IMG/VR virus record: IMGVR_UViG_643348547_000010
Span: 1 to 45,905 of that record
Reading direction: 5' to 3' (one strand)
DNA from: a virus
Lineage: Duplodnaviria > Heunggongvirae > Uroviricota > Caudoviricetes
Length of the DNA stretch: 45,905 nucleotides
Both the position numbers and the translations under genes were made by a program. Below, piece by piece: positions 422 to 40,770 of this stretch; position 1 is the stretch's first letter; each line of letters begins with the position of its first letter. The notes below the pieces were generated by a model. It worked only from the letters and a program-made list of their open reading frames with translations. It was not told the DNA's origin and searched no databases.

Positions 422-748
422 ATGACTAAAAATACTCGTTTTTCCCCCGAAGTCCGTCAACGGGCAGTCCGTATGGTTCTGGAAAGTCAGGGCGAATATG
501 ACTCACAATGGGCGACAATTTGTTCCATTGCCCCAAAGATTGGCTGTACACCGGAGACTCTGCGTGTCTGGGTACGCCAGCATGAGCGGGATACCGGAGG
601 CGGTGATGGCGGGCTCACCACCGCTGAACGTCAGCGTCTGAAAGAGCTGGAACGTGAAAATCGTGAACTGCGCCGCAGTAACGATATCCTTCGCCAGGCT
701 TCCGCTTATTTTGCGAAGGCGGAGTTCGACCGCCTCTGGAAAAAGTGA
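422..748 (+). CDS. IS629 OrfA (IS3-family transposase N-terminal HTH protein)
   Basis: 108-aa [25 protein letters not shown]..., near-identical to orfA of the copies at 14287 and 15893-16219. Confidence 0.9.
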
Positions 749-1162
749 TGCCACTGCTGGATAAGCTGCGTAAGCTGTACGGGGTCGGACCGGTATGCAG
801 TGAACTACATATTGCCCCGTCAACGTATTACCACTGTCAGCAACAGCGACATCATCCTGATAAACGCAGTGCCCGTGCGCAGCGCGATGACTGGCTGAAG
901 AAAGAGATACTGCGCGTATACGATGGGAATCATCAGGTATACGGTGTGCGTAAAGTCTGGCGTCAGTTGTTACGGGAAGGAATCAGGGTAGCCAGATGTA
1001 CAGTGGCGCGCCTCATGGCGGTTATGGGACTTGCCGGTGTTCTCCGGGGTAAAAAGGTCCGCACTACCGTCAGCCGGAAAGCCGTTGCCGCAGGCGACCG
1101 CGTAAACCGTCAGTTTGTGGCAGAACGTCCTGACCAGTTGTGGGTGGCTGATTTTACTTACG
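745..1162 (+). pseudogene. IS629 orfB, 5' part, interrupted by group II intron
   Basis: Translation identical to intact OrfB (14610-15500) up to ...QLWVADFTY, then diverges exactly at the intron 5' end. Confidence 0.8.
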
Positions 1163-3342: not shown

Positions 3343-3347
3343 ATGGA

Positions 3348-3381
3348 GAGCCGGATGCGCTGAAAGGTGCACGTCCGGTTC
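3348..3381 (+). ncRNA. Group II intron domain V
   Basis: GAGCCGGATGCGCTGAAAGGTGCACGTCCGGTTC: 34-nt hairpin with AGC triad and GNRA-type loop, located just after the IEP stop and followed by a short domain VI-like hairpin. Confidence 0.8.
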
Positions 3382-3404
3382 GGGGAGGAGAGGCAGGGAA
3401 ATAG

Positions 3405-3905
<501 letters not shown>

Positions 3906-6422: not shown

Positions 6423-6449
6423 CCCGCAATATTTTGCGGGCTTTTTTTT
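6423..6449. terminator. GC hairpin plus T8 run abutting the tailspike stop codon
   Basis: CCCGCAATATTTTGCGGGCTTTTTTTT; the U-run is on the plus strand, so it is a better plus-strand than minus-strand terminator. Confidence 0.4.
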
Positions 6450-9400
6450 AACGTTCTTCCAGAGACTGAACCCGCTCTTTTATCTTATCCATTTCTCTGC
6501 GCTGCCATGCTGCCTCGATATAGAATAAGAGATCAGGTCTGACCCCCCATCTAGATCCTGCTGGCGTTATTTCAACGCGCTCAATGATGTCTTCTATTAC
6601 CATCACTGGATTATCATCCTCATCAACAATGATGCTCCCGTCATTATCAGTCAGCGGCATTTCCCTTTGGCCAGTAATGACGTCATCATATACTGCGGGA
6701 TAATCGTCATAGCAAAGAAAGGCATAGCGGCATGTTGTGCTTTCTTCTTCCATGAGTCCGTGAGAAATAAGAACATCACGAAGTTGCTGCGCGATTACAC
6801 CATGATGTATCCTCGCCCCTTCTTCCCCCTTTATAGCGACAGCGTTCAGCCATTTATAAGCGATATACCTGACGTCACCCCAGGCATCCAGCAATGCTTC
6901 GTCAGGAGAGACCGGCTCTGTCTTTAATGTTCCGTCACTGGTAACCACAGGATTGGAGCCAAGATAAACTGTCGAGAACCTGTTTCCCGGACCACCAAGA
7001 GCATTTACATTATCAAGATAAGGTTTAACATCTCCGTTCTCAAAAAGATGTTCGAGTGCGTTATATACCGCGCGACGTGGAGTACTGCTTCCGGAACCAT
7101 GCAACGTTATCATTGCACCATCTGCTGAAGACGTTGTTTCACCGCCGCTAACGATTAATCTCTGAGCGGTAACATCATCAGACGGTACTTTCTTCGCAAT
7201 AATGGCGTAATTACCCTCAAGTTTGACTTCCGCGCGAACTTGTCCTGATGTACCTGCATGGACAGTCAGTGACTGGACGGCAACATCATCTGTGAAATCA
7301 ACGGGTACAGGAACCGTCCTCACGCCTGACGTCGACATAAAAGTAGGAAGCGTTCTGTTAGGAGTGGCTCCGTAGACAAAATCCCTTGAAACAAATTCTT
7401 CCTGTTTAATTTTCACCCTGAAACAATACAAATCAGCCGGGTGACCATCGTGAACATAAGGATATTTTCTGTTGTTATCCCCTATGCTCCATGGGTTTAG
7501 AAAGTCTTCCCCACCGAAAATGTAGTACAGCCAGTTGTCTTTGATACAAACTGAACCAACACCAACCGCAGAGTTAACTATTCCGCCCTGATAAATCTGA
7601 TCAGTAACATTAACCCACTCTACATTATCCAGACTCCACTCATTGACGTTAACTCTGGTCATAAATGTTCTTGGATAATTTCCTGCATAACGGTTATCAG
7701 GTTCTCCTCCTTCCCACTCACCAAATGCGCGCTCACTGCCAAAAATAATCAGCTCATCGCCAACTTTGGCAAAAGGAAGGTTTGAGTGATGAACATTATT
7801 TGGGAAGCGAAGAGAATTCCATGATGTACCTAAATCAGAGCTTCTGTGCAATGAACTACCGGGTTGAGTACTTAATGTCCCCCTGGTCGTCAGATACAGA
7901 ATGCCATCATAATATTTTACACATGGCTCAGATGCATTCGCCTCATATTCTACAGGTATGCGTCTGCGAACAAAGCTACCAGGAGAACCGAAAGCATCAG
8001 AGAAATAGAGTATCCCAAGCTCGCGTGGACCAATATCACCATTATGGTAGCCAACAGCAAAACTGTTATCGCTAATCGTCGCAAAACTGTGAATCTCAGT
8101 AACAGGAGTGCTTCCGTCAACAAAAGAAGGAATAGTTCCAAGACTGGTTTTTCTCCATGGTGACGAGTGAAATGATGTGCCAAAACTCCAGTATCTACCC
8201 TCGTTATTCTGATCCACATCCTGGGTATTTTGCGTCGTAACTGTAAAGGTATTTTTATCAATAACAGTAGTCACCGTCATATTCCCGGTAACACCTGTAA
8301 CACCAGAGTTTGAGAAGTTGACAAAATCACCAGCAAATAATCCGTGATCAGTAATGCGAATATAAGCGACTTGCTGATTTGCTGCTTTCGTTATACCACC
8401 ATAAACGCGAAGGCTGCGACTCATTGGGCGATCCCACAACTCTGCAACCTGCAGTTTATTTCCTCTCACGGTCCGCGTCTCAATTACAGCAAAAAGGCGA
8501 TTTCTGACAACCCCCATACTCATGCAGTGATAGTTAACTGTGGGATAGTTTTCATGTAAATCTGTAAGCCATTCCGGCGTTGTCCAGGTCTTCCCGTCAT
8601 CTCCTGAGCGAACCCATGCAACATGGAGGTTATTTACACCATGGCGGTCTCCAGCCATAAAAGGCGCATAGATGACATTGTCATATACAAACGTTTTATC
8701 CTGCGTCCAGGCGTTGTACCACGGTGTATCTGTAATTTTAAATAACTCTCCCTGGATAAAATCTTCAGAAGCATAAAAAAGAGGCTGGCCCGGTATTCTC
8801 TCAAATAAAAAACGAGCATTTTTAAATCGACTGACATCCGGAAGAGTTGATACTTTAAAAGTAAGCCCTAATCCGTCAATTTTATAACCTGGAGATGAGG
8901 CTTCAAGGCACGCGCTTATTGCAGTGGAATCGTCATTTATACCATCACCAACAGCTCCAAAATCTTTGGGGCTAATAGCATCACGCATTTTATCCTGGAA
9001 CGTTCGGTACACAGCCCCAGAACCATACTGAATAAACCAACCAAAACCACCAACAACTCCGGCGATTGCAGCATCGACATAATTACGCATTGAGCGATTA
9101 TTTACAGCGTCCTGCTCAAATGATGGATCTGCAAGGTTAGAAATTTTGTTTTGCTTTGCATCGTAATATTTTGCAAGCAAAGATGGTTTCATCAATGCAC
9201 GTCTGAACCACCCAAAACATTGCTGGATCAGCATCGTCAGGTAGTCAAAGGCATCTTCATGCACTTCGGGGAAAAATTTTCCCTGATTGCGAAGGTCTGT
9301 GTCCTGCACTACATCAAGCACACGATCTATCGTAATTCGCCATCCAGTAGCAAGCGGAGACGGAAGAACCACAGAACCGCCACTATAAGTGCCCGCCACA

Positions 9401-9567
9401 GTTACCGTATAACCGGTATCCAGGACCAATTCTGTTACGTTCCCGTTCAGGTCAGACACCTGAACAACCAGGTCTGATTTTCTGAAAATTCGAAAAGTAT
9501 ACGGAAACGATGTCGTAACGCCGTTACCGGTGTATTCGTTGTGGTCAACTTCGGTTGAGACCGTCAT
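6448..9567 (-). CDS. Tail fibre/tailspike: T7 gp17-like N-terminal adaptor, glycosidase-like body with Asp-box motifs, C-terminal intramolecular chaperone (peptidase S74-like)
   Basis: N-terminus MTVSTEVDHNEYTGNGVTTSFPYTF... and NLADPSFEQDAVNNRS resemble tail-fibre N-domains; DFGAVGDGINDDSTAI beta-helix-type motif; Asp-boxes SGDDGKTW and SSDLGTSW; C-terminal ...SDGTLKTEP...HHGVIAQQL... chaperone-like. Confidence 0.8.
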   Translation of the reverse strand: MTVSTEVDHNEYTGNGVTTSFPYTFRIFRKSDLVVQVSDLNGNVTELVLDTGYTVTVAGTYSGGSVVLPSPLATGWRITIDRVLDVVQDTDLRNQGKFFPEVHEDAFDYLTMLIQQCFGWFRRALMKPSLLAKYYDAKQNKISNLADPSFEQDAVNNRSMRNYVDAAIAGVVGGFGWFIQYGSGAVYRTFQDKMRDAISPKDFGAVGDGINDDSTAISACLEASSPGYKIDGLGLTFKVSTLPDVSRFKNARFLFERIPGQPLFYASEDFIQGELFKITDTPWYNAWTQDKTFVYDNVIYAPFMAGDRHGVNNLHVAWVRSGDDGKTWTTPEWLTDLHENYPTVNYHCMSMGVVRNRLFAVIETRTVRGNKLQVAELWDRPMSRSLRVYGGITKAANQQVAYIRITDHGLFAGDFVNFSNSGVTGVTGNMTVTTVIDKNTFTVTTQNTQDVDQNNEGRYWSFGTSFHSSPWRKTSLGTIPSFVDGSTPVTEIHSFATISDNSFAVGYHNGDIGPRELGILYFSDAFGSPGSFVRRRIPVEYEANASEPCVKYYDGILYLTTRGTLSTQPGSSLHRSSDLGTSWNSLRFPNNVHHSNLPFAKVGDELIIFGSERAFGEWEGGEPDNRYAGNYPRTFMTRVNVNEWSLDNVEWVNVTDQIYQGGIVNSAVGVGSVCIKDNWLYYIFGGEDFLNPWSIGDNNRKYPYVHDGHPADLYCFRVKIKQEEFVSRDFVYGATPNRTLPTFMSTSGVRTVPVPVDFTDDVAVQSLTVHAGTSGQVRAEVKLEGNYAIIAKKVPSDDVTAQRLIVSGGETTSSADGAMITLHGSGSSTPRRAVYNALEHLFENGDVKPYLDNVNALGGPGNRFSTVYLGSNPVVTSDGTLKTEPVSPDEALLDAWGDVRYIAYKWLNAVAIKGEEGARIHHGVIAQQLRDVLISHGLMEEESTTCRYAFLCYDDYPAVYDDVITGQREMPLTDNDGSIIVDEDDNPVMVIEDIIERVEITPAGSRWGVRPDLLFYIEAAWQRREMDKIKERVQSLEER

Positions 9568-9670: not shown

Positions 9671-9687
9671 ATTACCTTTCGGGTAAT
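9671..9687. promoter_or_regulatory. Operator-like 17-bp palindrome (site A)
   Basis: ATTACCTTTCGGGTAAT, intergenic, upstream of 9763 gene. Confidence 0.5.
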
Positions 9688-9762: not shown

Positions 9763-10020
9763 ATGCAGCAGTATCACTATCCACTGGAAGACGGATTTAC
9801 CGAAAGGATTCACACGCCGGGAGGCGTCAGGTCACTGGTGGAGGGATCGCACTTGATGAAATTACTCCGGGATCTCGATAAGGATGGATTTAATGTCGAT
9901 GGCCCACTTGCCGAACTGACTGCACTGATTAACTACGTCACCAGCTCACAGATGTCTATGCAGGATCTGCAAACACATCTCGACTATTGTGCCGAACAAT
10001 TACGAAAACAAACCAGATAA
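9763..10020 (+). CDS. Small protein paralogous to the C-terminal domain of the antirepressor at 10338-10994
   Basis: Start at internal ATG with GGAGAAG RBS; about 45 percent identity by eye to the last 80 aa of the AntA-like protein (shared ...IH-P-GV..L.E.S.LM.LL..L..DG..V.G..AELT....Y...LQTH..Y). Confidence 0.5.
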   Translation: MQQYHYPLEDGFTERIHTPGGVRSLVEGSHLMKLLRDLDKDGFNVDGPLAELTALINYVTSSQMSMQDLQTHLDYCAEQLRKQTR

Positions 10021-10023
10021 GGT

Positions 10024-10052
10024 TTGCAATTACCAAATAGAGTGCTTATATT
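10024..10052 (+). promoter_or_regulatory. Sigma70-like promoter TTGCAA-N17-TATATT
   Basis: Hexamers at 10024-10029 and 10047-10052; operator site B begins 27 bp after the -35 start. Confidence 0.45.
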
Positions 10053-10067
10053 TACCTTTGCGGTAAA
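10051..10067. promoter_or_regulatory. Operator-like 17-bp palindrome (site B)
   Basis: TTTACCTTTGCGGTAAA overlapping the -10/+1 of the promoter above. Confidence 0.5.
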
Positions 10068-10180
10068 TTTACATCGCACTCCTCTTGTGCCATAGTAATC
10101 GGGCACTGGCAAAATCCAGTGCCGGGATTGGTCTCCCGGATTACTAAGTGGCGCATACCACGCCAGACGTGGTTTTTTTA
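10059..10180 (+). ncRNA. Candidate structured leader or small RNA upstream of antirepressor gene
   Basis: About 120 nt between promoter/operator and an intrinsic terminator; contains stem-loops CACTGG...CCAGTG and CCGGGA...TCCCGG; no convincing ORF (track ORF 10119-10310 starts at GTG with no RBS). Confidence 0.3.
10158..10180 (+). terminator. Intrinsic terminator
   Basis: CCACGCCAGACGTGG followed by T7. Confidence 0.6.
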
Positions 10181-10337
10181 TGCGTATAGCACAGTCATGC
10201 CAGAATTATGGTGGGCTGAATGGGGGTCCGAAAGGACGCCGGTACCACTTAGGCCGGTAAGACCAACTCCGTTCAGTTCACCACCATCTGATTGGTCTCA
10301 GCGGTGGTGATGTAATTCGCTAAGTGGAGACGCCATC

Positions 10338-10994
10338 ATGAACGCTCAACTCATCCCCGTATTCAACGGCACTATCGCCAACGAAACCACTCTTCTCGTT
10401 AATGCTCGCGATTTACATACTTTTCTTGGGGTAGGTAAACGCTTTGCATCGTGGATTACAGAACGCATTGCTGAATATGGTTTCGTTGAAAATCAGGACT
10501 ATATTTTGGTTTCCCCAAATCGGGAAATCAAAGGTCGAGGAGGCGATCGCCGTAGCAAAGACTATCACCTCACCCTCGATACGGCCAAAGAAACTGCGAT
10601 GGTCGAGCGCAACGAAAAAGGCCGCCAGATACGCCGATACTTCATTGAATGCGAGAAACGTTTAAGACAACAAGAAACAAAGGTGGAGAAGGTCTTGTCA
10701 GGCTTCATGCCCGCCATTATGGAGGCGATCAAACTGGAAGACAAAAAAGAATACAGTGCCCCACTGAAGCCAGGCTACCGTAGCCTGATTCATTCGCCGT
10801 CTGGTGTTCTCGGCCTGACGGAGAACTCACTGCTGATGAATCTGCTGAACCAGTTGCAGGAAGACGGGCACGATGTATCGGGCGCGGCGGCGGAACTGAC
10901 CACCATGTTCTGCTACATCGTCGGTGTGAGCAAATGCCTGCGTGATATCCAGACGCACGCGGAGTACATCAACGACAAGGCAGGATTCTTCTGA
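10338..10994 (+). CDS. Antirepressor, AntA-like N-terminal domain plus C-terminal domain
   Basis: N-terminal DLHTFLGVGKRFASWITERIAEYGFVENQDYIL pattern typical of AntA/AntB-type antirepressors; RBS GGAG upstream. Confidence 0.7.
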   Translation: MNAQLIPVFNGTIANETTLLVNARDLHTFLGVGKRFASWITERIAEYGFVENQDYILVSPNREIKGRGGDRRSKDYHLTLDTAKETAMVERNEKGRQIRRYFIECEKRLRQQETKVEKVLSGFMPAIMEAIKLEDKKEYSAPLKPGYRSLIHSPSGVLGLTENSLLMNLLNQLQEDGHDVSGAAAELTTMFCYIVGVSKCLRDIQTHAEYINDKAGFF

Positions 10995-11039
10995 CAGAAC
11001 GGCGGCACAGGGATGTGCCTTTAAATAATTCTGTACAGA

Positions 11040-14286: not shown

Positions 14287-14613
14287 ATGACTAAAAATAC
14301 TCGTTTTTCCCCCGAAGTCCGTCAACGGGCAGTCCGTATGGTTCTGGAAAGTCAGAGCGAATATGACTCACAATGGGCGACAATTTGTTCCATTGCTCCA
14401 AAGATTGGCTGTACGCCGGAGACTCTGCGTGTCTGGGTTCGCCAGCATGAGCGGGATACCGGGGGCGGTGATGGAGGGCTCACCACCGCTGAACGTCAGC
14501 GTCTGAAAGAGCTGGAACGTGAAAATCGTGAACTGCGCCGCAGTAACGATATCCTTCGCCAGGCTTCCGCTTATTTTGCGAAGGCGGAGTTCGACCGCCT
14601 CTGGAAAAAATGA
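14287..14613 (+). CDS. IS629 OrfA
   Basis: 108-aa ORF, same protein as 422-748 apart from one residue. Confidence 0.9.
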
Positions 14614-15500
14614 TGCCACTGCTGGATAAGCTGCGTGAGCAGTACGGGGTCGGACCGCTATGCAGCGAACTGCATATTGCCCCGTCAACGTATTACCACT
14701 GTCAGCAACAGCGACATCATCCGGATAAACGCAGTGCCCGTGCGCAGCGCGATGACTGGCTGAAGAAAGAGATACAGCGCGTATACGATGAAAATCACAA
14801 GGTATACGGTGTGCGTAAAGTCTGGCGTCAGTTGTTACGGGAAGGTATCAGAGTGGCCAGATGCACTGTGGCACGTCTCATGGCGGTTATGGGACTTGCC
14901 GGTGTTCTCCGGGGTAAAAAGGTCCGTACGACCATCAGCCGGAAAGCCGTTGCCGCAGGCGACCGCGTAAACCGTCAGTTCGTGGCAGAACGACCTGACC
15001 AGCTGTGGGTGGCTGATTTTACTTACGTCAGCACATGGCGGGGCTTCGTCTATGTGGCGTTCATCATTGATGTGTTTGCCGGATACATCGTGGGGTGGCG
15101 GGTCTCATCGTCCATGGAAACGACATTCGTGCTGGATGCACTGGAGCAGGCGTTATGGGCCCGTCGACCGTCCGGCACGGTCCATCACAGTGATAAAGGT
15201 TCTCAGTATGTATCGCTGGCCTACACACAGCGGCTTAAGGAAGCCGGATTACTGGCATCAACAGGAAGTACAGGCGACTCGTATGACAACGCGATGGCGG
15301 AGAGCATCAATGGTCTTTACAAAGCGGAGGTAATACACCGTAAGAGCTGGAAAAACCGTGCAGAAGTGGAACTGGCCACACTCACGTGGGTGGACTGGTA
15401 TAACAATCGACGATTGCTGGAAAGGCTGGGCCATACTCCTCCGGCAGAAGCAGAAAAAGCTTATTATGCTTCCATCGGAAACGATGATCTGGCAGCCTGA
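14610..15500 (+). CDS. IS629 OrfB (DDE transposase catalytic part)
   Basis: 296-aa ORF overlapping orfA in the -1 frame as in IS3-family elements. Confidence 0.9.
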
Positions 15501-15542: not shown

Positions 15543-15896
15543 GTCGCCTGCGGCAACGGCTTTCCGGCTGATGGTCGTACGGACCTTTTTACCCCGGAGA
15601 ACACCGGCAAGTCCCATAACCGCCATGAGACGTGCCACAGTGCATCTGGCCACTCTGATACCTTCCCGTAACAACTGACGCCAGACTTTACGCACACCGT
15701 ATACCTTGTGATTTTCATCGTATACGCGCTGTATCTCTTTCTTCAGCCAGTCATCGCGCTGCGCACGGGCACTGCGTTTATCCGGATGATGTCGCTGTTG
15801 CTGACAGTGGTAATACGTTGACGGGGCAATATGCAGTTCGCTGCATAGCGGTCCGACCCCGTACTGCTCACGCAGCTTATCCAGCAGTGGCATCAT
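15543..15896 (-). pseudogene. IS629 orfB, truncated
   Basis: Encodes first 117 aa of OrfB then runs into the neighbouring IS end. Confidence 0.8.
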
Positions 15897-16219
15897 TTTT
15901 TCCAGAGGCGGTCGAACTCCGCCTTCGCAAAATAAGCGGAAGCCTGGCGAAGGATATCGTTACTGCGGCGCAGTTCACGATTTTCACGTTCCAGCTCTTT
16001 CAGACGCTGACGTTCAGCGGTGGTGAGCCCTCCATCACCGCCCCCGGTATCCCGCTCATGCTGGCGAACCCAGACACGCAGAGTCTCCGGCGTACAGCCA
16101 GTCTTTGGAGCAATGGAACAAATTGTCGCCCATTGTGAGTCATATTCGCTCTGACTTTCCAGAACCATACGGACTGCCCGTTGACGGACTTCGGGGGAAA
16201 AACGAGTATTTTTAGTCAT
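15893..16219 (-). CDS. IS629 OrfA (in truncated copy)
   Basis: 108-aa ORF matching the other orfA copies. Confidence 0.85.
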
Positions 16220-31014: not shown

Positions 31015-31091
31015 GTGGCATTAGCTCACTTGGACAGAGCAACCGCCTTCTAAGCGGTTGGTCGCAGGTTCGAATCCTGCATGCCACGCCA
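31015..31091 (+). tRNA. tRNA-Arg (anticodon UCU), phage-encoded
   Basis: Cloverleaf by hand: acceptor GTGGCAT/ATGCCAC, D-arm GCTC/GAGC, anticodon stem ACCGC/GCGGT with loop CTTCTAA, T-arm GCAGG-TTCGAAT-CCTGC, discriminator G, CCA; sequence differs from host argU. Confidence 0.85.
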
Positions 31092-34007: not shown

Positions 34008-34346
34008 TCACACTATTAATTTCGTTTCATGCCAGCCTTTAGTCACCCAGCATTGCGAGTCACCATTACACGGGCATGAATTAACTGGAACTCTCTCGCC
34101 GCACTTACCGCAACATTTTCTGCTGATCGATTTTATACGCCCGCGCACGCGTGCATCATCCTGGCGGATCAGCAGCGCGATGTACTCGGCCATTTCATAG
34201 GGATCGCGACCAGGGCGCCGGGCGGCGCAGTTCCGCGCCAGCATTTCCTGCTCCTGCTTATCCAGCACCAGTTCAATTTTGCGCTCACCAGATGCAGCTT
34301 GTCTGGCTCTCTGAGCGGCTTTGCGCTCTGCTGCTGATTTAGCCAT
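34008..34346 (-). CDS. Hypothetical Cys-rich protein (possible zinc-binding regulator)
   Basis: 112 aa; basic N-terminus, C-terminal CCGKCG...CPC...C cluster. Confidence 0.5.
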   Translation of the reverse strand: MAKSAAERKAAQRARQAASGERKIELVLDKQEQEMLARNCAARRPGRDPYEMAEYIALLIRQDDARVRGRIKSISRKCCGKCGERVPVNSCPCNGDSQCWVTKGWHETKLIV

Positions 34347-40185: not shown

Positions 40186-40770
40186 ATGAAAAGTATCCAG
40201 GACGTCCGCAGGCAAAATCTCAACGACTTGATCGACCGTGAATTCAATGGTGTTCAGACGCGGATGGCAGAAAAACTTGGAACTCAGGCAAATCTGGTAA
40301 ACCGCTGGGCTCTTGGCAAGAAGGTTATCGGCGACCAGGTTGCACGAAAAATTGAAGCTGCCGCCAATAAACCCCGTAACTGGCTTGATATTGATCGTTC
40401 GCTTTCTCAGGAGGGTTTTCAGCCTGTCGGCCCGAGCGATATAGGTCAGCTGGCGGCTCACAACCTGGAACGCTGGATGAGCGAAAGCCGCGACCTTTCA
40501 ACGCAGGGAAAACTTCACCGCGCATCCGGCGTCGCCCAGGTGACAATCAGTCGCCTGTTAAACAATGAGGTCAGCGTTTCCATTTCCACCCTGGAGAATG
40601 TTGCATCCGCATTCGGGCGTCACGGATATGAACTACTGATTCACCCGCACGACCCTGCGACTATCAACTATGACCGCTCGCGCTACGCATTGTTACCCGA
40701 AACCGAGAAAGCAAAGATCGAAAGTTACATTGAATTTGTCATCAACCAGAACGAAAAAAACAAACAATAA
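40186..40770 (+). CDS. Immunity repressor candidate: double-HTH DNA-binding protein without peptidase domain
   Basis: 194 aa; two Cro/C1-type HTH segments (QTRMAEKLGTQANLVNRWALGKK and VAQVTISRLLNNEVSVSISTLENVASAF); no Ser-Lys S24 motifs; own terminator. Confidence 0.65.
   Translation: MKSIQDVRRQNLNDLIDREFNGVQTRMAEKLGTQANLVNRWALGKKVIGDQVARKIEAAANKPRNWLDIDRSLSQEGFQPVGPSDIGQLAAHNLERWMSESRDLSTQGKLHRASGVAQVTISRLLNNEVSVSISTLENVASAFGRHGYELLIHPHDPATINYDRSRYALLPETEKAKIESYIEFVINQNEKNKQ

Follow-up and report, generated by a model that had tools for sequence, protein, structure and literature searches.

Background

The name IsrK-C4 immunity system has already been given to a pair of phage RNAs in which IsrK corresponds to seqA and C4 to the CI RNA of phage P4, and similar systems have been reported for the phages P1, P7 and N15 (PMC3632133). 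The P4 RNAs seqA and CI are described as structural homologues of IsrK and C4 (PMC3632133, PMC4825925). The present analysis concerns a locus of this kind in a Caudoviricetes virus (IMG/VR record IMGVR_UViG_643348547_000010), whose positions 1-45,905 are called the window in the following and which is an epsilon15/phiV10-like (Uetakevirus) prophage of E. coli. An earlier note had flagged the plus-strand stretch 10024-10180, upstream of the antirepressor gene ant, as a promoter with an overlapping operator and a leader RNA ending in a terminator. This stretch holds a copy of IsrK, a small RNA whose family has been described before, has a curated entry in Rfam and has been investigated by experiment. 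We consider it highly probable that it forms the 5' half of an IsrK-C4 RNA immunity module, in which C4 blocks the translation of ant and IsrK competes for C4. The type of module is already known from immI of P1 and P7, isrK of Gifsy-1, seqA/CI of P4 and from N15, and the variations found here are modest: there is no upstream open reading frame (ORF), the target of C4 lies on the Shine-Dalgarno sequence of ant itself, and a repressor operator is located between two promoters.

In Gifsy-1 of Salmonella Typhimurium, the minus strand carries isrK (34316-34240) and C4 (34214-34131), both according to Rfam, and the antirepressor gene anrP (34076-33513). Two transcripts arise from the isrK promoter there, a short small RNA that stops at the terminator and a longer one that reads through into anrP. 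The promoter drives transcription of anrP past the terminator (280 versus 3 units), the anrP message is untranslated (4 units), and IsrK acting in trans raises the translation of anrP 139-fold and the signal of a transcriptional fusion 8-fold (PMC4825925). The same study defined a helix by the exchanges G28A/G31A in IsrK and C162U/C159U downstream, and described a small reading frame, orf45, which starts at an ATG in the 5' stem of C4 and overlaps the start of anrP (PMC4825925). According to a review, orf45 of Gifsy-1 is conserved in its nucleotides and variable in its amino acids. In phage P1, C4 is cut from its transcript by RNase P and occludes a ribosome-binding site (PMC5320573).

IsrK and C4 in the window

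The covariance-model search for known small RNAs that the earlier note had suggested was carried out as a scan of the whole window with Rfam, and it returned two RNAs in full length above their cut-offs. The isrK model (RF01394) matches 10103-10179 (+) with 67.7 bits (cut-off 50, E 1.7e-12, model positions 1-77 of 77), and the C4 model (RF01695) matches 10204-10288 with 61.2 bits (cut-off 45, E 1.5e-9, model positions 1-87 of 87). Both hairpins of the leader are also matched by c4-a1b1, the model of the upstream C4 target, at 39.9 bits and thus below the cut-off of 46.7. With E-values up to 5, the scan found no further RNA family over this region except a chance-level match to RsmV (E = 0.31). 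The elements of the module and the gene it regulates are as follows, where box 1 denotes the box displayed in the loop of hairpin 2 and box 2 the box at the Shine-Dalgarno sequence (the a/b lettering of phage P1 is not used).

10024-10052 (+): promoter-like site P1, TTGCAA-N17-TATATT, 9/12 matches to the consensus, predicted start at about 10059
10050-10068 (core 10052-10066, no strand assigned): operator-type palindrome AT-TTACC-TTTGC-GGTAA-AT, overlapping the -10 hexamer of P1 and touching the -35 hexamer of P2
10068-10096 (+): family-conserved IsrK promoter P2, TTTACA-N17-CATAGT with TG at -15/-14, predicted start at about 10103
10103-10179 (+): IsrK-family small RNA, the leader of the ant operon, with hairpin 1, hairpin 2, spacer and intrinsic terminator
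10128-10134 (+): box 1, copy 1, TTGGTCT, in the loop of hairpin 2, complementary to C4 10260-10266
10144-10151 (+): box 2, copy 1, CTAAGTGG (RNA CUAAGUGG), between hairpin 2 and the terminator, complementary to the C4 loop 10245-10252
10157-10179 (+): intrinsic terminator, ACCACG-CCAGA-CGTGGT followed by seven T
10204-10288 (+): C4 antisense RNA, with a closing stem ending in CACCACCA, a GAAA hairpin, a second hairpin and single-stranded AGACCAA
10292-10298 (+): box 1, copy 2, TTGGTCT (RNA UUGGUCU), downstream of C4
10303-10310 (+): conserved GGTGGTGA, complementary to the 3' strand of C4, TCACCACC (10278-10285)
10320-10329 (+): box 2, copy 2, CTAAGTGG (10320-10327), overlapping the Shine-Dalgarno sequence GGAG of ant (10326-10329)
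10338-10994 (+): antirepressor gene ant, 218 amino acids, Pfam AntA PF08346 (E 3.6e-27), PHROG 377 'anti-repressor Ant' (E 1e-67)

The architecture of the leader agrees with this assignment. The conserved isrK-family motifs GCAAAAUC and CGGGAUUG are located in two 5' hairpins that are followed by a Rho-independent terminator. The two stem-loops claimed from the letters alone do exist: hairpin 1 (10103-10122) has 7-8 bp and the loop CAAAAU, and hairpin 2 (10122-10139) has 5-6 bp and the loop UUGGUC. In an alignment of eight loci, five of the seven pairs of hairpin 1 show compensatory changes; a partner of its conserved loop GCAAAAUC was not found in C4. The intrinsic terminator was likewise correctly recognised. 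For comparison with relatives we collected 80 loci via the Ant protein and 120 via the conserved isrK motif, which gave 101 parsable units, and every one of them has a run of 5-8 T located 61-69 nt after GCAAAATC. Folding of the RNA 10059-10180, a check that had also been proposed, gave -51.5 kcal/mol versus -32.1 +/- 3.5 kcal/mol for shuffled sequences (z = -5.56), and none of 200 shuffles was as stable. A long helix seen in the 120-nt isoform (10086-10100 with 10138-10155) was discarded, since by eye it is not conserved in a Klebsiella relative.

The order of isrK, a gap of about 24 nt, C4 and an antirepressor gene is also found by Rfam in Gifsy-1, VT2-Sakai, APSE-2, phiP27, a Klebsiella phage and phiV10; in phiP27, the gene downstream of C4 is annotated only as hypothetical. 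The distance of 160 nt between the flagged stretch and ant holds with the ATG at 10338; however, this gap is not empty but contains C4. C4 in turn ends 49 nt before the ATG of ant, with no icd gene between. The earlier note had offered two readings, a stable small RNA or a leader that governs the antirepressor by read-through past its terminator; homology to the Rfam isrK family and to Gifsy-1 indicates that both apply. In the two relatives that were inspected, the stretch is not annotated for RNA: the phiV10 record carries only the annotation 'terminator' and a RefSeq record from E. coli has no RNA gene at this place, so that the present assignment provides a correct annotation. By this assignment, the antirepressor of epsilon15-like prophages is subject to the RNA switch that P1, P4, N15 and Gifsy-1 also have.

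Complementary boxes and their co-variation

C4 of the window offers two segments for pairing. In the predicted fold, the loop of its second hairpin holds CCACTTAG (RNA CCACUUAG) at 10245-10252, and the single-stranded AGACCAA lies at 10260-10266. For each of these segments there is one complementary box in the leader, and this box recurs downstream of C4. The duplexes of box 2 with the C4 loop have predicted energies of -14.2 kcal/mol (copy 1) and -13.4 kcal/mol (copy 2), and overall the energies of the duplexes between boxes and C4 range from -12.6 to -18.5 kcal/mol. Two sets of the type box-antisense-box are thus present in 10103-10345, while two such sets occurred in only one of 2000 dinucleotide shuffles. 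In the minimum-energy fold of the read-through RNA 10103-10350, both boxes of the leader are paired with C4 in cis, which agrees with 'structure A' of Gifsy-1.

Numbering on the Gifsy-1 sequence reveals that the pairs G28-C162 and G31-C159 of the helix defined there are exactly those of box 1, in the loop of hairpin 2, with the single-stranded segment of C4. Processing by RNase P would call for an acceptor-like stem and a 3' CCA, and C4 of the window has the closing stem with CACCACCA at 10279-10286; it might be processed by RNase P here as well. The 3' strand of this stem is also the partner of the element at 10303-10310, within which GGTGGTG is invariant in 9/9 aligned loci. If GGTGGTGA pairs with TCACCACC, this would open the closing stem of C4 and present copy 2 of box 1 in a hairpin loop.

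The boxes vary among the relatives, and they vary together. The 7-mer of box 1 occurs as ten different words across the 101 units; in 99 of these its reverse complement is present in C4, and in 99 a second copy follows within 75 nt after C4. The loop of C4 is even more variable, with 45 distinct versions. These 45 loops were paired with their own and with foreign partners. On average, a C4 loop pairs with its own leader at -11.5 kcal/mol and with foreign leaders at -6.3 kcal/mol (p = 2e-22), and with its own ant start region at -12.8 versus -7.9 kcal/mol for foreign ones (p = 2e-23). Since the leader boxes and the ant boxes both prefer the C4 of their own locus, the copies in the leader are under the same selection as those at the ribosome-binding site. 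Of all the evidence that the flagged stretch acts via C4, this three-way co-variation is the strongest. If the precedent of P1 and P7 holds (PMC5320573), the 45 C4 loops and the ten box 1 words would define separate immunity classes.

Promoters and operator

The promoter-like sequence TTGCAA-N17-TATATT, on which the earlier note was built, is present at 10024-10052. However, promoter-like sites are not enriched in this region (7 versus 6.0 +/- 2.8 in shuffles), and therefore support for a promoter has to come from the comparison with relatives. This comparison points in the first place to promoter P2. Its sigma-70-type hexamers (-35 TTGAC[AGTC] or TTTACA, -10 of the TATAT- or CATAG-type) are found at a constant distance from position 1 of the isrK model in the 101 related units. 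P2 predicts an RNA of 77 nt starting at about 10103, which is the size of Salmonella IsrK, and not the transcript of about 120 nt starting at about 10059 that had been proposed.

The proposed start might nevertheless be used in addition. Among 41 distinct upstream sequences from the epsilon15-like group, promoter P1 retains TTG in its -35 and TAnnnT in its -10 hexamer, while the spacer diverges. Promoter P1 is missing from Gifsy-1, VT2-Sakai and APSE-2 and is confined to the epsilon15/phiV10-like group. Judging from this pattern, promoter P1 is probably a real second promoter that is specific to this lineage, with a start at about 10059.

The operator site said to overlap the promoter belongs to a real motif. 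In the same 41 relatives, the arms of the palindrome are invariant, whereas its central 5 bp vary. If up to one mismatch is allowed, the window contains 14 sites of the form TTACC-N5-GGTAA (0.91 expected), and all of them lie between genes. A search for TTACC-N6-GGTAA in the window found nothing, and N5 is the correct spacing. The sites and the repressor gene are located as follows.

9672, 10052, 11068, 11169, 30678, 33889, 33907, 37730, 37792, 39731, 40068, 40116, 40828 and 40890: TTACC-N5-GGTAA sites, 15 bp each
40186-40770 (+): prophage repressor, 194 amino acids, two helix-turn-helix regions (Pfam HTH_3 and a YdaS-like region)

Several of the sites are paired, including pairs on either side of the repressor gene, and the dispersed set recalls the C1 operators of phage P1. 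The site at 9672 is located in the upstream region of an 85-codon gene that precedes the module.

The 194-residue protein, which shares 100% identity with the repressors of phiV10 and vB_EcoP_ZX5, presumably binds these operators and is presumably also the protein on which Ant acts. Overexpression of the ZX5 repressor abolished free phage, and overexpression of the ZX5 antirepressor led to fewer lysogens (PMC9782041).

Small reading frames

The earlier note had seen no credible ORF in the interval, and the relatives confirm this. The ATG at 10208, the equivalent of the start codon of orf45, is followed by GTG GGC TGA, and its frame thus comprises three codons; over the 101 units, the frame opened by this conserved ATG ranges from 3 to more than 60 codons. 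For this reason, the small ORFs were rejected as genes. A 63-codon frame from a GTG (10119-10310), the frame from ATG 10180 and the frame from ATG 10208 are all not conserved across the relatives. The ORF from ATG 10197 to 10310 ends 28 nt before the ATG of ant, and an obvious Shine-Dalgarno sequence is absent.

Given the range of frame lengths and the variable amino acids of orf45, a coupling ORF is not a general part of the module. Conserved nucleotides combined with variable amino acids are the pattern to be expected of an RNA gene. In Gifsy-1, a full-length Rfam match to C4 (69 bits, 34131-34214, minus strand) falls on the published 'orf45' and on STnc1160, a stable RNA.

A model for the control of ant

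We propose the following scheme, for which family membership, architecture, complementarities and co-variation were computed here, whereas accumulation of the short RNA, read-through, activation of antirepressor translation by IsrK in trans and processing of C4 by RNase P are taken from the literature on Gifsy-1 and P1. Transcription would start from one or both of the promoters on either side of the repressor-type operator. Most transcripts would end at the terminator 10157-10179 and yield a short IsrK, of about 77 nt if they start at the family-conserved promoter, and a minority would read through and give rise to the C4 antisense RNA and the mRNA of ant. The C4 segments CCACUUAG and AGACCAA would then pair with CUAAGUGG (10320-10327) and UUGGUCU (10292-10298), respectively, and the translation of ant would be blocked. 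Since both boxes are also present in IsrK (10128-10134 and 10144-10151), it would compete for C4, within the read-through RNA (in cis) as well as in the form of the separate short RNA (in trans), and in this way set the threshold for antirepressor synthesis. The operator would link the module to the prophage repressor, and since Ant presumably inactivates this repressor, a feedback loop might be closed. The direct occlusion of the ant ribosome-binding site in this phage and the decoy logic of the competition are our inferences.

Several observations weigh against this scheme. The mechanism published for Gifsy-1 depends on an ORF of 45 codons, overlapping C4 and translationally coupled to anrP, whose equivalent in the window has three codons. 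Single mutations in the leader box of Gifsy-1 raise basal translation, an effect not predicted by a pure decoy model. The sequence by itself is compatible with C4 acting mainly on translation, as in P1, and with its acting mainly on termination, as in P4 and N15. Finally, the promoter-like hexamers of the window are not above chance, and both transcription starts are predicted. On the other side, the window lacks the small ORF of Gifsy-1, and its leader boxes, C4 segments and ant ribosome-binding site co-vary, which favours the general scheme that C4 blocks ant and IsrK competes for C4.

It is also conceivable, although we hold it to be rather doubtful, that the IsrK leader of the epsilon15/phiV10-like lineage is an ORF-free RNA that serves both as an attenuator sensing C4 and as a decoy for C4, and that the two promoters give isoforms of about 77 and about 120 nt which expose the C4-bound box differently. 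If true, 'orf45' of Gifsy-1 would be better read as C4 RNA, and IsrK would be a general anti-antisense RNA of phage antirepressor switches.

Alternative explanations

The most serious alternative is that the leader acts mainly as a transcription attenuator sensing C4, like CI/seqA of P4 or the CA RNA of N15. We regard it as possible, while leaning towards its not being the main function; it is compatible with the competition for C4 proposed above. The element in question is a hairpin that could form in the nascent RNA.

10149-10165 (+): candidate anti-terminator hairpin UGGCG/CGCCA, sharing nucleotides with box 2 (3' end) and with the terminator (5' arm and loop)

This hairpin would allow read-through; binding of C4 to box 2 (10144-10151) would prevent its formation, so that the terminator forms and C4 limits its own synthesis together with the transcription of ant. 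The alternative hairpin indeed covers part of box 2 and of the 5' arm of the terminator, its conformer is nearly iso-energetic with that of the terminator (-25.5 versus -26.5 kcal/mol), and in folds of nascent RNA an equivalent hairpin is predicted in 69/69 distinct related leaders. However, the mean z-score versus shuffles is only -1.34, and the cross-locus control that was so clear for the boxes is weak for this hairpin (-7.85 kcal/mol for own versus -7.19 kcal/mol for foreign partners, p = 0.0013); a GC-rich motif that the leaders share, and not co-variation, accounts for much of the pairing. Because of this weak control, the anti-terminator hairpin is kept only as a rival. With regard to Gifsy-1, the 8-fold effect of IsrK on the transcriptional fusion would fit an attenuator, and the authors themselves raise a possible CI-like role of the downstream RNA in termination (PMC4825925), but relief of polarity once translation begins explains this effect equally well. 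Termination that depends on C4, as in P4 and N15, is therefore possible in the window, and the folds are suggestive only.

A second alternative is that the short RNA chiefly acts in trans on host genes as an Hfq-type small RNA, its location upstream of ant being incidental. The Rfam name of the family, 'isrK Hfq binding RNA', and the terminator hairpin with a U-tail at the 3' end, which is typical of Hfq-binding small RNAs, would suit such a role. Nevertheless, we consider it improbable, since the variable parts of the RNA follow the cognate C4 and the ant start region and not a host target (host targets were not sought) and since the module accompanies antirepressor genes across unrelated phage types.

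Slightly less probable still is that the Gifsy-1 model applies literally, with short IsrK binding to the read-through mRNA and opening the ribosome-binding site of an orf45 whose translation is coupled to that of ant. The isrK and C4 elements of the window are homologous to those of Gifsy-1, where the coupling is supported by experiment (PMC4825925). But the model cannot apply literally here, because the frame from ATG 10208 stops after three codons. The wide range of frame lengths over the 101 units, the variable amino acids of orf45, and the end of the ORF 10197-10310, which lies 28 nt short of the ATG of ant and has no obvious Shine-Dalgarno sequence, speak against it as well.

An arrangement like sar of P22, or a mere terminator of the upstream 85-codon gene without an RNA regulator of its own, is hardly credible: the location upstream of ant does resemble P22 immI and the terminator follows the stop codon of the 85-codon ORF by 137 nt, but a scan for promoter-like sites found none on the minus strand where ant starts (near 10300-10345), the Rfam scan gave no match to a sar model but only those to isrK, C4 and c4-a1b1 and the chance-level one to RsmV, and the hairpins, boxes and terminator are kept in Gifsy-1, VT2-Sakai and APSE-2, which lack the 85-codon gene.

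Comparison with related phage systems

The locus shares with Gifsy-1 the two Rfam families, their order and spacing of about 24 nt, the antirepressor gene directly after C4, the place of the promoter relative to position 1 of IsrK and the pairing of the box in the loop of hairpin 2 with the single-stranded segment of C4. It differs by the three-codon frame in place of orf45 and by the words of the boxes (UUGGCGU and UCACCG in Gifsy-1, UUGGUCU and CUAAGUGG in the window). The repressor-type operator and the second, upstream promoter are found in the window only. Unlike Gifsy-1, the window has no isrJ homologue after ant and no gene for a Q-type antiterminator upstream.

The similarity to immI of P1 and P7 (c4, icd, ant1/ant2) is also considerable. 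C4 belongs to the same Rfam family, copies of both target boxes exist upstream and downstream, with the downstream one over a ribosome-binding site, and in both cases an operator for the main prophage repressor (a presumed one in the window, Op51 of C1 in P1 immI) is located in the promoter region. A P1-like phage displays the two hairpins, both boxes, the terminator, C4 and a box over the ribosome-binding site of icd, and its leader thus has the same two hairpins and terminator. The difference is that the occluded site in P1 is that of icd, via which ant is controlled, while the window has no icd and the box lies on the Shine-Dalgarno sequence of ant itself. Moreover, the family of the repressor, the sequence of the operator and the size of Ant differ from those of P1 and P7.

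With seqA-CI-seqC of P4 and the CA RNA of N15, the locus has in common that processed antisense RNAs arise from the leader of the operon they control. In P4 and N15 the RNA causes premature termination of transcription, whereas in the window a block of translation is better supported and termination is suggestive. Furthermore, P4 controls replication genes in this way and the module of the window an antirepressor.

The comparison with sar of P22, which the earlier note had drawn, is appropriate with regard to the role, as both systems silence, post-transcriptionally, an antirepressor gene that adjoins a tailspike gene. It fails for the arrangement: sar is an opposite-strand transcript that spans the start of ant, whereas the regulator of the window is encoded upstream of ant and on the same strand.

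A similar design exists in sRNA-Xcc1 (RF02221). It also consists of a promoter, a hairpin displaying the target, a terminator, a structured antisense RNA and a target over the Shine-Dalgarno sequence of ant, and the three parts co-vary. However, sRNA-Xcc1 is a separate Rfam family that belongs to no Rfam clan, and isrK gives no match to its leader. Contigs of Stx and other lambdoid phages (L005, L010, L036, L041, L046, L048, L062 and L081) have sRNA-Xcc1 instead of C4 about 40-130 nt upstream of an ant homologue.

The host phage and neighbouring features

The region 10020-10345 is 99.7% identical to phage phiv142-3 and, among the matches of that search, 80-84% identical to other members of the phiV10 group. 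DNA similar to the flagged region is present in 907 of 5,426 complete E. coli genomes.

The 85-codon gene directly upstream of the unit (9763-10020, +) encodes a copy of Ant's C-terminal domain as a protein of its own. Its product shares 40% identity over 78 residues with residues 137-214 of Ant and belongs to PHROG 450. Directly 3' of the stop codon of ant lies the hairpin GGCACA-GGGA-TGTGCC followed by TTT (10998-11019, +), which is probably the terminator of the operon; it is this hairpin that gave the chance-level RsmV match. The tailspike gene (6448-9567, -) encodes an epsilon15-type N-terminus and is transcribed divergently from the ant region. In close relatives from E. coli, the tailspike is annotated with the catalytic beta-propeller domain of an endosialidase.

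The Rfam scan also revealed three ALIL pseudoknots with 116-120 bits, at 703-819 (+), 14568-14684 (+) and 15822-15938 (-). ALIL pseudoknots are frameshift elements of insertion sequences of the IS3 family. Two of the copies are identical, lie in opposite orientation about 1.1 kb apart and adjoin a 587-codon gene that ends at 14325. A match to the catalytic domain of a group II intron was obtained at 3346-3432 (+) with 64.9 bits (cut-off 40). Finally, a tRNA-Arg gene with the anticodon TCT is located within the prophage region at 31015-31091 (+), and Gifsy-1 likewise has a tRNA-Arg gene, about 340 nt past its antirepressor gene.

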